Below are positions 1 to 27,902 of a stretch of 36,193 nucleotides of DNA, piece after piece. The notes beneath the pieces were generated by a model. That model was not told the DNA's origin. It did no database searches and worked only from the letters and a program-made list of their open reading frames with translations. Each line of letters begins with the position of its first letter. Positions within the stretch are counted from its first letter, which is position 1. Origin of the DNA: a virus; the UHGV virus genome UHGV-0315046; one strand, written 5' to 3'. Position numbers and translations under genes: made by a program.

Positions 1-253
1 TCACTCTGCCAGATGGCGCAATGCCATCTGGTATCACTTAAAGGTATTAAAAACAACTTTTTGTCTTTTTACCTTCCCGTTTCGCTCAAGTTAGTATAAA
101 AAAGCTGAACGCGAAACATTAAAAAACATTAATATCAATGTGTTACAATATCTTTAGTCTAAAAAATAGACTACATGATGCTACAAAACACAACATATCC
201 AGTCACTATGAATCAACTACTTAGATAGTATTAGTGACCTGAGACAGAGCATT

Positions 254-292
254 AGCGCAAGGTGATTTTTGTCCTCTTGCGCTAATTTTTTG
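254..292 (+). terminator. Putative rho-independent terminator: 8-bp stem AGCGCAAG/CTTGCGCT followed by a T-run
   Basis: Perfect inverted repeat agcgcaag...cttgcgct followed by aattttttgtc; no ORF of 60 aa or more anywhere in 1-683. Confidence 0.35.
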
Positions 293-608
293 TCAACGCA
301 CTGGGTTAGTTGAATTTACAACCATGCTCAGTATCTCGACAAGCGCAGAGAAATGATGCAGTGGTGGGCGGACTGGCTTGATGAAAAGGTGGAGTGACCC
401 ACCTTAACCCTTATCGAATAGCGCAAAGCCTTGCAATCCAGTGCAAAGCTTTGTGTGTCTCAGTTTTTTCTCACAAAACATAATTCATTCAATTTAAATA
501 TCATCGTTATCATGAAAAGTATCTTTTAATAGATATTTTTATTTCTTGTGATGTAACTTCCTTGGTTGATAAAAAAACATTAACCCACCATAAACGTATG
601 AAATCATA

Positions 609-654
609 AATTATACTACAAAAGGCTTTTCTTCGTCGGCAAGGAAAGCCTTTT
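609..654 (-). terminator. Putative intrinsic terminator downstream of the tailspike gene (hairpin works on both strands)
   Basis: Inverted repeat aggctttTc...gaaagcct about 30 bp past the tailspike stop, flanked by T/A-rich runs on both sides. Confidence 0.45.
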
Positions 655-683
655 GATTGTGTAATAAAATATTGGCAGGCTGA

Positions 684-2531
684 TTATAATGATGATATTA
701 AATAGTATTCAACAAGTGTTGGTAAGGAAACACCAACAGGTGTTGGTCTTGATATTGTTATTGTTGTTCCTGAAACTGAAACAGTGTCCATTGAGTTTGC
801 AGCATCAGTTGGAATTACGCTGGCAGAATATATGACGCCAGAAATTGGGTTTGGGATGTCTGCAGTTCCTGATGTAGCTCCGGGTGACATAGGTACAGTT
901 ACCTTTCCTCTAGTTAATTTATTGTTATTAACCCCAAAGTTATTGTTTCTATCTTTTGGTGAGTTTAATAAGGTAAGTGATGTTATGTAATTACCGTTCA
1001 ATGAGAGACCGTCAATATCATCAAACAACAAATCACTAGCAAACATACATCCATTGATATTAATATTTCTTGATGTTTTTGAATAAATTGATTTATCACC
1101 ACCAATTATATTTACTCCCAAAACATTAACATTACTGACATTGTTTAAAGATATACCTATATTGTTATTGATAGGGTTATTGTTTTCACACCTAATTTCC
1201 ACTCCTTCTATATTACGAAGAACTGAAGGCGTCTGAGATCTAAAGTCTATTCCAACAAACTGATTAATGCTGTCACCTTGTGCGGCAATCCAGCAATCTC
1301 TTACAGAAAAAACAGAATTGTTATTTTCAAGAATTATCCCAGTTGACCCTACGAAATCAATATCGACATTCGAAAGATGCATATAAAGGCTACCTTTTAC
1401 CCATATCCCAACGTTATTTGAGATACACATTGTCTCACCATCAATAATTATCCCCTCGCTTATCACTTCACCACCAGACCATGAGTAAGTTTCTGGTGCA
1501 ATATCTATTCCTATAGACGATGGTTGAGACAATCCCTTTCCTGTGAATTTACATCCTGATATATGTATACTAACACACTGACCAAGCAATCTAAGACCAA
1601 TATTACACCCACTAGCTCGGCAGTTTGTCATTGAGCTGTGCCACCAGCCTTGCATTTCAAAACCTATTGAACAATTTTGTACCGTGACGCAGTCAAAATT
1701 AAGAGCGTAAACTTGCCTTATTACTGTATCGCTTTTTTTTAAGGTAGTTCCTATCCCCTTCACTATATCGTTTCCAGTAATGGTTATGTCACGAATAAAT
1801 GCACCTGCTGTTGTAGGGCCATAATCAAAACATATAATATAAGCATTACTATTACTTAAAATATCTCCTATTGGCCGTATATGAGTTCCGTTTCCACATC
1901 CGAACAAATTAATTCTATCAGGGATAATAATAGTTTCACTAATTCTATACTCTCCTGCTGGAAGAAATACATTACATCCAGATGGATATGAACTCTTTAG
2001 GTCTTGAAGACAGTTTTTAATTGCTGTTGTGTCATCATTGACGCCATCAGCTTTAGCTCCCCAACTGAAAACAGAAAAGGTCATTGCATTAAACAAATGT
2101 TGAGTCTGTGGAACCGCTCTCGGAAAAGGTTGTTTAACAGCAATTAGAGAATCTCCCATTCCTTCGGATGGGCTTGATAACCTTTTTTCAAGCTGATCAG
2201 GATCATACTTCAGCACATTCGGAAAATAGAACTGCTGTGCACCATACGCATCATAAACAGCCATAGAATGGCCTTGCACAGTTACGAATTTGGCAATCTG
2301 TCCGTTATATACAGGATACCCGCCAGCGTTAATGATGATTGGTTGCGAAACAGGAACGTGAGAGCCGTCTTCATTCTCTACATAAACCTGAATCCGGTTT
2401 TCAGGATTTACCGGGTCAGTGTCAATTTTCCCGATATAAATTTCGCCATTGGCTACGGCTTTAAAAGAACGCGCCATAGTGAAGAGTTGCGAAGGCATAC
2501 TCACTACAACATTGGCTGTAATGTCTGTCAT
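684..2531 (-). CDS. Tailspike protein: P22 gp9-type N-terminal head-binding domain fused to a divergent beta-helix receptor-binding domain
   Basis: 615-aa ORF. The first ~110 aa ([29 protein letters not shown]...VLKYDPDQ) match the conserved P22/Sf6 tailspike head-binding domain as I recall it; the remainder is Asn/Gly/Ile-rich with repetitive beta-helix character and lower GC. Confidence 0.9.
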
Positions 2532-2709
2532 TTAATTTGCTCCAGATACAAGGAATCGCCGCAGCATGGCTACGGTTGATATTTGTTTGGTTTTTGAACT
2601 ACGAAAATTTCGTAGTGCTATCCATCAAGGCCATCGCCGCTGAGTTGCTGCGGTGAATTTTGGGCATAAAAAAACCCAGCCGAAGCTGGGTCGTTGCGTT
2701 GGTTATCTG

Positions 2710-3624
2710 TCAGTAGTTATGTACTGAAGGAGGTAATTCTTTATTCTTAAGTCTCATCCATGCGGAAAGATTCGTTGGTCCGTCTGGCTCATTAATATCA
2801 ATATCTCGTGTGTGGTTTATTAAAACGTCTCTCGCCATTCCTATAACATAAGAGAACTCATGACCGTAGTCGTAGCATCTGCCGGAATAGTTCGATTGAA
2901 TTTGTTTCAGCGCCGGATACAGTTCGCGGAATAATGCCTGTGAGCGGTTGGCATAATCCCATAACCATACAAGGCTGTTTGCTTCTTTTGCAGAAAGCTC
3001 GTTGGTTTTCTTCTCTTGTTTGCCGATTAACTCGCCTTCAAGCGGAACGCGAGCTGCAAGTGACAGAGCTTCGGTAAACTGCTCATCGCTGATTTCTTTG
3101 TATGAACACCCAAAATGAGATTTCAGTGACGACCACATGGTGATCATCGCCTTAGCCTGTTTTTCTTTTGGCAGAGACTGACCGCGACTCATGACGAGTT
3201 GTTTAATGGCTTCCTGCTGTTCAGTGGTGATTTTTCCCGGCAACGCCTTTTTAGCTTTCGGTGTATTTCCGTAAGACCCCGTTTTACGAATGGATGGCAA
3301 AACTTCAGCTGTCACCCATTTGCGGAATTTGTGCGGGACTGAACCTTTATTGACGGCATCACGGCAGCGCAGAACCAATGTATACATACCTGATTCGCTC
3401 ACAATGCTTAAATTCTGCTCACCACCAAGGGTGTAACTTAAAGTTACTCCCTTCTCATCGTCATCAAGTGCAGTAAGCGCCTTGCGTGAGTTAGTCAGGG
3501 TTAAAGCATCACAAACATCTTTTGCTACAAACCACGGCTCACCGCACTTGTTGATGACGCGGATTTCACTGTCGCCGAATTTGAAGATGGTGAAATCGTT
3601 TTGTGCCTTTGCTATACTTTTCAT
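2710..3624 (-). CDS. ant: Antirepressor Ant (immI region)
   Basis: 304-aa ORF with an N-terminal Bro-N/AntA-like segment ([15 protein letters not shown]), placed between arc/mnt and the tailspike as in P22 immI. Confidence 0.7.
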
Positions 3625-3878: not shown

Positions 3879-4027
3879 ACCACTACCCCCTCTCTCTTCA
3901 GGCTGTCCAGCAATCGCTTAATCACTTCCGAGTTAAACGACCGGCATTCTTCTTTGGCCTTTCCTGTAATCGCATCTTTTAGCGACTGAGGCATTCTCAC
4001 CAAAATTCTGCTAACTTCTTTTTCCAT
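3875..4027 (-). CDS. arc: Arc-like ribbon-helix-helix repressor
   Basis: Start refined to the internal Met (MEKEVSRILVRMPQSLKD...) preceded by GGTGG. RHH pattern hydrophobic-R-hydrophobic-P...NGRS-NSE resembles P22 Arc; divergent to mnt. Confidence 0.7.
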   Translation of the reverse strand: MEKEVSRILVRMPQSLKDAITGKAKEECRSFNSEVIKRLLDSLKREGVVV

Positions 4028-4136
4028 ACCGCCACCATGTGAGTTATTGTGAATCACAAACATATCACTGTGACTATATCAAGTCAAAATTTTTTTGAAT
4101 ACACTGTGATATCAATGTGATTATCACGGTGTAAGT
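4028..4136. promoter_or_regulatory. Divergent Pant/Pmnt promoter-operator region
   Basis: 109-bp spacer between divergent arc and mnt starts containing palindromes TTGTGAaTCACAA, TGATATCA and GTGATtATCAC, consistent with Arc/Mnt operators. Confidence 0.5.
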
Positions 4137-4391
4137 ATGACGAAGGTTAGAGACATAGCCCCATATAGCGTAAGAATGCCAGATAGCCTCAAGCGCGACC
4201 TGACCATAAGAGCATCGAAAAACGGACGCTCATTAAATTCAGAAATAGTTATGATCTTGCAAGCTGCTATTGATGAAGAAAAATCACCAAGATCAATAGA
4301 AGGTTTTGCTCAACAAGAATCTGAAAAATTTAGGGAGGCTCTTCTTAAGACTCTCAGTAGCATGTACGGAGAAGATAAAAAACCCACCTGA
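4137..4391 (+). CDS. mnt: Mnt-like ribbon-helix-helix repressor
   Basis: 84-aa ORF; N-terminal RHH (YSVRMPDSLKRDLTIRASKNGRSLNSEIV) resembles P22 Mnt in length and motif. Confidence 0.75.
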   Translation: MTKVRDIAPYSVRMPDSLKRDLTIRASKNGRSLNSEIVMILQAAIDEEKSPRSIEGFAQQESEKFREALLKTLSSMYGEDKKPT

Positions 4392-26465: not shown

Positions 26466-27902
26466 TCAGAATCCTCCTTTCTTCTTGGACTGCGGTTCCT
26501 CGCGTTCACGTCGGCGCATTTCAGCAGACTGTTGGTCTGTGTCATAAATAGCGCCATTTGCCTGAATGCAATACACCGTGCCGGTATTGCCATGACGATT
26601 GAGACGAAGGATTAGTTCGGTTTCACCAGGAGGAACGCTGTCATCAAAAGCACCTTCACGATGGATCCCGACCCAATAATCGCAATCCTGTTCAATCTGC
26701 CCTGTATCTCGCGAGTCACTTGGTAATGGGCGTTTATTGGTTCGGCTTTCCAATGCGCGGTTAAGCTGTGTCAGAAGCACAACAACGCAATCAAGCTCTT
26801 TGGCAAGGTTCTTCAGTCCTTTGGTGATCATGCCGTAAGCAAGGTCGTTGCGATCGGCCTTCTCAGCGGTCATTAGTGTCAGGTAATCGACCAGAATCAT
26901 GCCAACACATCCTTTTTCTCGCTTGATTCGACGGCTTTCGCTAACGATTTGAGCCAGAGATAATCCCGGCGTGTCGTCGATGTAAAGCAGGTCGATTTCA
27001 CTCAAACGATTAGCTGTTTCGATCGCCCTGTTGAAGTCACCATCGTAATCACCCTGATAGCCGTCATCAGCGTCACTTGTCGCCGGAAGGTAAAAAATAT
27101 TCGGGTTAACACCTGACTTCTGTCCCACCAGTTTTTCCAGTATCTGATCACCTGGCATTTCAAGGCTGAACATCAGAGCGGGCTTTTTCTCATGCACTGC
27201 GCAATTGATTGCCATCTGGCTGTATAGCGTCGTTTTCCCCATCTTAGGGCGAGCGCCAATGACAAACAGAGAGCCTTTCACCAGACCTTTCGGTGACAGC
27301 ATCCTGTCCAGCGATGGGATCCCTGTGCTCATTCCTCGTTGTTCGCCTGACGGGTCAAATCGCTTCTCAAGGTCGCTAACCCAGTCTTCCATGACCTCAC
27401 CAAATGAGCGAAGGCCGCGACGCGATCCGGTTTTTGCATGGTCTGTCAGTTGCGTGAAAATCGCCTGAATAGCTTCGTACTTCTGCGTCGCAGTCATTCC
27501 GTTGCGGGAATAGAGCAATTCCGTCGCTTCAGTCATGCGGTTGATGGCGTAGCGTTCCATTGCGGTTTCGCGAACCTGCATTGCATAGGCAACGATGTTT
27601 GCGGCGCTTGGCGTGTTCTTTGCGATCTCAGCGATATAAGCAAAACCGCCAACAGACGCCGTTAACGATTTACGCTCCAGTTCATCGAAAAGCGTCAGGC
27701 CATCTACTGGCTTTTGCTCCCGGTGCATTCTGGTTATTTCTTCGAAAATGATTTTGTGTGGTCGGCTGTAAAATGAATCAGGCTTCAGCATCGCCAGAAC
27801 TTTCTGGACGCGCTCACTGCTGTCATCATCCAGAAGCAATCCACCAATCACCGCCTGCTCTGCCTCGATGCTATGGGGCGGCGCATAAAAATTATCGGTC
27901 AT
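26466..27902 (-). CDS. Replicative DNA helicase (DnaB family; P22 gene 12 analogue)
   Basis: Start refined to MTDNFYAPPHSIEAEQAVIGGLL (DnaB N-terminal signature); Walker A GARPKMGKTT; 478 aa. Confidence 0.9.
   Translation of the reverse strand: MTDNFYAPPHSIEAEQAVIGGLLLDDDSSERVQKVLAMLKPDSFYSRPHKIIFEEITRMHREQKPVDGLTLFDELERKSLTASVGGFAYIAEIAKNTPSAANIVAYAMQVRETAMERYAINRMTEATELLYSRNGMTATQKYEAIQAIFTQLTDHAKTGSRRGLRSFGEVMEDWVSDLEKRFDPSGEQRGMSTGIPSLDRMLSPKGLVKGSLFVIGARPKMGKTTLYSQMAINCAVHEKKPALMFSLEMPGDQILEKLVGQKSGVNPNIFYLPATSDADDGYQGDYDGDFNRAIETANRLSEIDLLYIDDTPGLSLAQIVSESRRIKREKGCVGMILVDYLTLMTAEKADRNDLAYGMITKGLKNLAKELDCVVVLLTQLNRALESRTNKRPLPSDSRDTGQIEQDCDYWVGIHREGAFDDSVPPGETELILRLNRHGNTGTVYCIQANGAIYDTDQQSAEMRRREREEPQSKKKGGF

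Follow-up and report, generated by a model that had tools for sequence, protein, structure and literature searches.

The first 683 nucleotides (nt) of the virus genome UHGV-0315046, which was analysed as a stretch of 36,193 nt (the window), very probably constitute the right end (attR) of a P22-like (Lederbergvirus-type) prophage that carries a lambda integration module and is inserted in E. coli at attB-lambda, between ybhC and ybhB in the gal–bio interval. The region is a composite, and its main parts (1–297) are well-known elements: from their sequence they can be identified as an attR junction of the structure P-O-B', followed by the retroregulator of int. This identification draws on sequence identity, site conservation, junction structure and RNA folding, and the features that carry it are the following.

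1–90, no strand assigned: E. coli chromosomal spacer from the ybhB stop codon to attB (B' side, towards bio), by K-12 identity
9–31, plus strand: host-encoded stem-loop beginning 8 nt past the ybhB stop codon, a perfect inverted repeat
91–105, no strand assigned: lambda att common core O, 15 base pairs (bp), TTAGTATAAAAAAGC (reverse complement of GCTTTTTTATACTAA), matching at 15/15 positions
87–95 and 99–107: B' and C core-type sites, respectively, flanking and overlapping the core
106–240, no strand assigned: lambda-type P arm, by ungapped alignment to lambda
133–145: IHF site H2, 11/13 identical to lambda, with the IHF consensus WATCAANNNNTTR kept
about 155–178: Fis A-tract and Xis X2 region, containing the palindrome 155–173
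185–197: Xis site X1, 13/13 identical to lambda
200–210: Int arm site P2, 11/11 identical to lambda, with GTCACTA at 202–208 on the plus strand
211–223: IHF site H1, 13/13 identical to lambda and matching the same IHF consensus
230–240: Int arm site P1, 11/11 identical to lambda, with GTCACTA at 232–238 on the minus strand
243–294, plus strand: sib/tI, 50/52 bases identical to lambda

Alignment to E. coli K-12 MG1655 revealed that positions 1–105 are 100% identical to chromosomal positions 807432–807328. Position 1 directly follows the TAA stop codon of ybhB, and the identity extends through the 15-bp core, which is also identical to the lambda recombination feature at 27724–27738 and to K-12 attB. 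No second copy of the core was found elsewhere in the window, and the motifs ACTAACTTG and CAGCTTTTT were located at the core-type sites. Beyond the core, K-12 runs on into the B arm towards ybhC, while the window follows the lambda P arm from position 106 (lambda 27723–27534 in reverse complement). The insertion locus is the intergenic ybhC–ybhB spacer that holds attB-lambda; in both strain 97.3 and the phage 720R6 record, bioA and ybhB lie upstream of the same flank. With host B' sequence to the left of the core and the phage P arm to its right, the junction is therefore attR (P-O-B').

The original prediction, made from the letters of the sequence without database searches, had suggested a prophage boundary or an attP-proximal region and had proposed an alignment to the unoccupied bacterial locus. 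As run, that alignment gave K-12 sequence over 1–105 and divergence from 106, and the boundary suggestion was borne out, the K-12 ybhB side continuing through the core and then giving way to the lambda P arm. As to the attP-proximal suggestion, the region is attR and not an intact attP. The stem-loop at 9–31 (CCAGATGGC-gcaat-GCCATCTGG, with 9-bp arms and a 5-nt loop) folds at −19.4 kcal/mol (z −5.7) and recurs unchanged in the unoccupied K-12 locus; it is host DNA, not phage DNA. No U-run follows the hairpin, and a role as the ybhB 3' end or as a stabiliser would be conjectural.

P22-like phages usually integrate into tRNA genes (thrW, argU) (PMC2629481), the KplE1-type module uses argW, and a piece of an argW-type integrase gene is present at 314–397. 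These points would fit a tRNA-type att as in P22, Sf6 and HK620, which was weighed together with an intact attP of a free phage. The left flank, however, has 100% identity to K-12 and only 28% to lambda P', the integrase piece comprises only 27 codons, and ARAGORN detected no tRNA genes in the window. A search for homology to a tRNA 3' end had been proposed earlier; the target turned out to be the intergenic lambda attB. The probability of an intact attP or a tRNA-type att is thus negligible, both being refuted by the host flank and the absence of a tRNA.

To the right of the core, window positions 87–295 align without gaps to lambda 27742–27534 in reverse complement, with 87% identity. Of the 27 mismatches, 20 lie within 112–184, between the core and X1. 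The arm sites P1 and P2 stand at lambda spacing, and the binding features 'int 1' and 'int 2' of the lambda record map to window positions 227–246 and 195–214, respectively. X1, X2 and the Fis site were compared with what we take to be the lambda sequences; on this basis X2 differs at 2 of 13 positions and X1.5 at 3 of 7, and the A-tract is kept. The palindrome TAGTCTA-aaaaa-TAGACTA at 155–173 has its right arm inside X2, and its A5 loop is the A-tract of the Fis site; the left arm is not palindromic in lambda. The palindrome is therefore a feature of this att variant, which 434 and 97.3 share, and is placed at a protein-binding site; there is no need to read it as an RNA or cruciform element.

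The sib/tI element follows the P arm. The tI terminator hairpin, ATTAGCGCAAG...CTTGCGCTAAT, spans 251–286, with 251–261 pairing with 276–286, and a T6 (U6 in the RNA) run occupies 286–291. A lower stem of 7 bp, in which 243–249 pairs with 288–294, can form only in read-through RNA according to the predicted fold. The structure with both stems has a folding energy of −27.9 kcal/mol (z −5.8), and its upper stem comprises 12 pairs. The two differences from lambda are a T-to-C change in the loop at 274 and a change at position 243, in the outermost pair of the lower stem. The homologous position in the phage 434 record carries a terminator annotation, and in the circular phage JEP4 int is transcribed across attP towards sib, which lies on the int-sense strand. 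The known sites are much better conserved than the spacers, even in Salmonella phage 29485, where P1 is 100% and sib 96% (50/52) identical to the window, compared with only 48–54% for the P-arm spacers; the conservation of sib against roughly 50% in the spacers argues for selection on sib/tI.

The RNase III step of lambda sib was reportedly described by Guarneros et al. in 1982 and Schmeissner et al. in 1984. By homology with lambda, the extended read-through duplex is a predicted RNase III substrate, and cleavage followed by 3'-to-5' decay would lower Int, as we infer from the lambda literature. Lambda sib lowers the amount of Int made from pL transcripts (PMC5300877, PMC2951348), and the 'sib' of PMC6212723 belongs to the unrelated Ibs/Sib toxin–antitoxin system.

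The strong hairpin with its U-run and very low folding energy could also belong to a trans-acting small RNA (sRNA) gene, with the T-run hairpin at 251–291 as its terminator, and the DN1 phage record has an 'antisense RNA' feature under part of the matching stretch. The element, however, has 96% identity with lambda sib/tI, a terminator of int transcripts begun across att, and the DNA upstream of it in the prophage consists of the host ybhB 3' flank and protein-binding sites. No sigma-70-like promoter was detected upstream, the only two hits of the promoter scan lying at 672–712 with no promoter excess, and no Rfam family matched within 1–600 at E below 1. Over 1–1000, searched against Rfam 15 with E below 1, only three sub-threshold hits to unrelated families were obtained, all on the hairpin at 598–665; Rfam itself appears to hold no sib/tI family. 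An sRNA gene, which the original prediction had offered as an option, is thus very improbable, and the T-run hairpin is better described as the cis-acting terminator and processing site sib/tI, without an Rfam match.

By analogy with lambda, protein binding, recombination and RNase III cleavage at this junction can be placed in a single scheme. Upon induction, Int, Xis and IHF, aided by Fis, would assemble on the P arm. IHF would bend the DNA at H2, Xis would bend it at X1/X1.5/X2, and Int would bridge B' and P2, following the published attR site map and the roles given there to H2, Xis, P2 and Fis (PMC4880445). The attR complex would then pair with the attL of the opposite prophage end, and strand exchange in the core would excise the phage and rebuild attP. 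On the excised or infecting circle, int transcription would run across P'-O-P into sib. Transcripts dependent on CII/pI would end at the tI hairpin and U-run and be stable, while N-antiterminated pL transcripts would read through, form the extended stem, be cut by RNase III and decay back into int, and this decay would lower Int relative to Xis. In the prophage, sib would lie at the right end, far from int, and pL transcripts made on induction would escape its control; this separation of sib from int in the prophage state classically explains how Int comes to be made from pL once a prophage is induced.

The far end was examined in relatives of the window. The right end of the window is the early-left operon (RecT, Ea22-type genes), and no int, xis or attL is present within the window. 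Two related prophages are 99.5–99.7% identical to window positions 29–35.6 kb, in the early-left region, and both carry xis and a 356-amino-acid (aa) Int identical to lambda Int at 354 of 356 positions, followed by a P' arm identical to that of lambda, the same core and, bordering ybhC, the B arm of K-12. By its sequence, the far end of both is a textbook attL (P'-O-B).

Several points weigh against the assignment of the region as a working attR. Because int, xis and attL lie beyond the window, the cognate recombinase and the second core are documented only in the relatives, and the contigs found to carry the last gene of the window end at most about 1.3 kb past it, one of them after about 180 bp. 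Between H2 and X1 (146–184) the identity to lambda is only 69%, with X1.5 and X2 diverged, so that binding of Xis and Fis there is assumed from the lambda arrangement. Excision competence and RNase III processing are likewise carried over from lambda by analogy. A simple terminator scan flagged neither tI nor the hairpin at 619–655 described below, probably because their loops exceed the 8-nt limit of the scan; this promoter and terminator scan was not used as evidence either way.

The same gap at the far end, with assemblies that break shortly past the right end of the window, is compatible with a fossil junction, that is, a real attR of a grounded or defective prophage that no longer takes part in excision. 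Such fossils exist: the PPompW phages carry a degraded internal B'-O-P-sib with 81% identity and a stem-breaking change in sib, and the related prophage in GCA_033843445.1 may itself be rearranged. Here, in contrast to the degraded PPompW copy, the core, P1, P2, H1, X1 and sib are intact, the P22-like genes of the window, which run from the tailspike to the early-left operon, form an apparently complete set, and the related prophages have an intact int (99% identical to lambda Int), xis and attL. A fossil junction is therefore improbable, and a prophage end with the layout of a functional lambda attR is preferred.

Two side observations concern these records. In the lambdoid record PPompW_132418 (LC567822.1), the segment at about 4001–4273 contains the ybhB flank, core, P arm and sib, and it also occurs in Stx2a-associated records; this copy sits between the host-specificity (J) gene and the type III secretion system effector genes espO, nleG and espM, and from its sequence it looks like a fossil attR that imprecise excision has captured. 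In GCA_033843445.1, positions 709–3128 hold a P2-like integrase, a CI-type repressor and a tail-fibre assembly fragment at the place of the replication genes, and the lambda-att prophage there may be interrupted or rearranged.

The composition of the region agrees with its earlier description as AT-rich, noncoding and downstream of the tailspike. Its GC content is 35.9%, compared with 47.0% across the whole window; the longest open reading frame (ORF) in 1–683 has 32 aa, in line with the claim that no ORF reaches 60 aa; and the minus-strand tailspike ORF ends at 684. Perfect hairpins (stem of at least 7, loop 3–16) number five, compared with a mean of 0.78 in 500 dinucleotide-preserving shuffles, a count of five being reached by only 1 of the 500. 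All five have RNA folding z-scores of −3.4 to −6.7 relative to shuffled sequence. The four palindromes listed in the original prediction all exist, two of them at other coordinates (off by 1 and by 10 bases). The first lies at 9–31 rather than 10–32 and has a 5-nt loop, and TAGTCTA-aaaaa-TAGACTA lies at 155–173 rather than about 165–183. For the third, 254–292 was correct for the inner part, the full stem being 251–286 with 11-bp arms; the fourth, AAGGTGG-agtgac-CCACCTT, was confirmed, at 386–405. The fifth perfect hairpin, CAAAAGGCTTT...AAAGCCTTTTG at 619–655, was absent from that list.

The remainder of the region, from 298 onwards, contains the features below.

314–397, plus strand, frame 2: KplE1/CPS-53-type intS relic, the last 27 codons and the stop codon (IYNHAQYLDKRREMMQWWADWLDEKVE and stop)
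386–405, plus strand: 7-bp hairpin across the stop codon of the relic, AAGGTGG-agtgac-CCACCTT
398–476, no strand assigned: conserved intS 3' flank, including the imperfect palindrome 423–450, by multi-record alignment
477–618, no strand assigned: AT-rich spacer of 142 bp with no recognisable element, in the place of the gtr cassette of relatives
619–655, no strand assigned: bidirectional terminator-like hairpin with 11-bp arms, starting 29 nt past the tailspike stop codon
684–2531, minus strand: tailspike gene, a 615-aa ORF, given as context outside the noncoding region

Over positions 314–397, the window and the 3' end of the intS gene annotated in E. coli H5 are 100% identical. The intact H5 IntS has 385 aa, with the Pfam domains Phage_integrase and Arm-DNA-bind_3 extending over residues 2–365. 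No full-length integrase with arm-binding, core-binding and catalytic domains is present at 314–397, where 27 codons remain, and the relic lacks the whole catalytic domain except its last residues. In strain 97.3 this piece has a RefSeq annotation as an incomplete coding sequence (CDS) that lacks the N-terminus. On this comparison the segment can be described as a dead integrase fragment. An intS relic after sib was also found in 434, JEP4, 720R6, 97.3 and Salmonella phage 29485.

The homology continues past the relic. Positions 316–476 are homologous to the 3' end of K-12 CPS-53/KplE1 intS together with the first ~80 bp of the intS–yfdG(gtrA) spacer, and 398–476 can be aligned in K-12 CPS-53, H5, 97.3, 434 and JEP4. 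Lambda lacks 296–419, having 23 bp in place of a 124-bp segment, and its positions 27510–27473 keep window positions 420–457 at 94.7% identity. The relic and flank after sib, together with the lambda remnant, suggest that a lambda-type int-att-sib cassette displaced a KplE1-type attP and most of intS long ago, and that the scar may have been carried since. The hairpin at 386–405 folds at −10.5 kcal/mol (z −3.5); its stem is mismatched in 97.3 and K-12 (CGACCTT for CCACCTT), no U-run follows, and it probably has no function of its own.

The palindrome at 423–450, AAAGCCTTGCA-atccag-TGCAAAGCTTT, folds at −20 kcal/mol (z −3.9) and is kept in K-12 CPS-53, H5, 97.3, 434, JEP4 and partly in lambda. 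The 434 record places two CII-binding sites there, before a 49-aa minus-strand ORF. On the minus strand the palindrome reads TTGC-N6-TTGC at about 433–446, so that it might act as a promoter of the CII type, as a terminator for intS or as a site controlling gtr; the palindrome as a whole could be the intS terminator, a gtr control region or a chance occurrence. The CII promoter at 433–446, taken from the 434 annotation, was rejected as a candidate: its motif consists of the two arms of the palindrome, and no convincing −10 element was seen by eye. By our own arithmetic, about six TTGY-N6-TTGY motifs are expected by chance per 48-kb genome. In a look by eye for Dam/OxyR phase-variation sites of the P22 gtr kind, no GATC was seen in 398–480.

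Positions 314–700 are 100% identical to the argW prophage of E. coli H5/H6, in which intact intS is followed by a 286-bp spacer and then by the same tailspike; the H5 tailspike CDS (615 aa, 'phage tailspike protein' in RefSeq) is identical over the compared bases of its 3' end. Among 5,426 complete E. coli genomes, 440–700 was fully matched (100%) only in H5 and H6. The other E. coli hits and both phage-record hits for 440–700 covered its first 34–43 bases only (440–482).

In 97.3, by comparison, positions 1–482 are matched at 96.5% identity and are followed by gtrA, gtrB, a third gene in the gtrC position, and then the tailspike. At about 480, both 97.3 and K-12 part from the window and run into gtrA/yfdG. 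The conversion cassette of gtrA, gtrB and a third gene is absent between the junction and the tailspike here; the original prediction had noted that P22 relatives carry conversion genes and attP/int after the tailspike, and the position of the 97.3 gtr cassette agrees with this. The exact combination over 1–683 was found in no complete E. coli genome or phage record. On these alignments the window is a recombinant that resembles 97.3 to the left of ~316–341 and H5 to the right of it; this switch point, judged from diagnostic differences, falls among the first bases of the shared intS homology.

The GC content is 27–39% over 477–2100 (the spacer and the receptor-binding part of the tailspike), compared with 47% for the window. 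Together with the restriction of 440–700 to H5/H6 among complete E. coli genomes, this low GC content suggests a recently imported foreign cassette. The tailspike itself has the Pfam domains Head_binding (1.1e-65), Pect-lyase_RHGA_epim (pectate-lyase-like) and Tailspike_C. The hairpin at 619–655 has a 15-nt loop and is, on either strand, preceded by an A-tract and followed by a U-tract; it folds at −22.6 kcal/mol (z −6.7) on the plus strand and at −15.6 kcal/mol (z −4.2) on the minus strand. Most simply, it would serve as a bidirectional terminator for the convergent tailspike gene. A 22-aa ORF, MISYVYGGLMFFYQPRKLHHKK, lies just after this terminator at 539–607 on the minus strand, with TATAAT directly before its ATG; it has no homologues beyond the identical H5/H6 copies and is probably a chance ORF.

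The relic and flank at 314–476 may have acted as a homology 'linker' for the swapping of tailspike and O-antigen-conversion cassettes, or 423–450 may be regulatory; we regard these readings as unlikely. In E. coli as well as Salmonella, lambda-att phages have the segment beside sib, part of its flank survives in lambda, and the window looks like such a recombinant, with its crossover at ~316–341. If the 'linker' proposal holds, cassettes would be exchanged between phages with different integration modules.

Taken together, the right boundary of the prophage is fixed to the base (core 91–105), with insertion at attB-lambda beside ybhB, and the sites present point to an integration chemistry of lambda Int, Xis, IHF and Fis. 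Because four of the five hairpins are accounted for as known or host elements, no new mechanism has to be invoked for any of them. Here a P22-like virion module is joined to a lambda integration module via the leftover of a third integrase gene; this joining and the absence of the gtr serotype-conversion cassette are both examples of module shuffling where boundary sequences are conserved, and no new question arises from either. P22-like phages with a lambda integration module are already in the databases (JEP4, 720R6), and their biology is already known. Only the widespread intS scar beside sib and the gtr-less recombinant spacer are mildly new.

Compared with lambda attR, the junction has the same 15-bp core, the same B' flank up to ybhB, the same P1, P2, H1 and X1, an H2 that fits the consensus, and the same site order and spacing in an ungapped alignment. 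It differs in its carrier, a P22-like podovirus with a tailspike rather than a lambda-type siphovirus, and in the palindrome TAGTCTA-aaaaa-TAGACTA, which lambda lacks and which this variant has in common with 434 and 97.3. The sib/tI element agrees with that of lambda in 50 of 52 bases, position relative to att, strand, U6 hairpin and extended read-through stem; downstream of it, lambda has 23 bp and the window the 124-bp intS-relic segment.

The closest relatives are JEP4, vB_EcoP-720R6 and the 97.3 prophage, which have the same block of int, attP, sib and intS relic convergent with a tailspike gene, the same ybhB junction as prophages, and 91–97% identity over window positions 1–480. The circular order in JEP4 (Lederbergvirus) is int (356 aa), attP, sib, intS relic and convergent tailspike, and the 97.3 and 720R6 prophage records read bioA, ybhB, junction, tailspike. 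Beyond about 480 they differ from the window, 97.3 having its gtr cassette and JEP4 and 720R6 other small ORFs and tailspikes. The KplE1/CPS-53 module (K-12, HK620, Sf6, CUS-3, H5/H6), the layout of which has been described (PMC2951348), differs from the window, which keeps only 27 codons of intS, has no argW and no attL overlapping an intS promoter, and is integrated at attB-lambda. The likeness to this module lies in the right part of the region, where 314–700 equals the H5 sequence and 316–476 resembles that of K-12.

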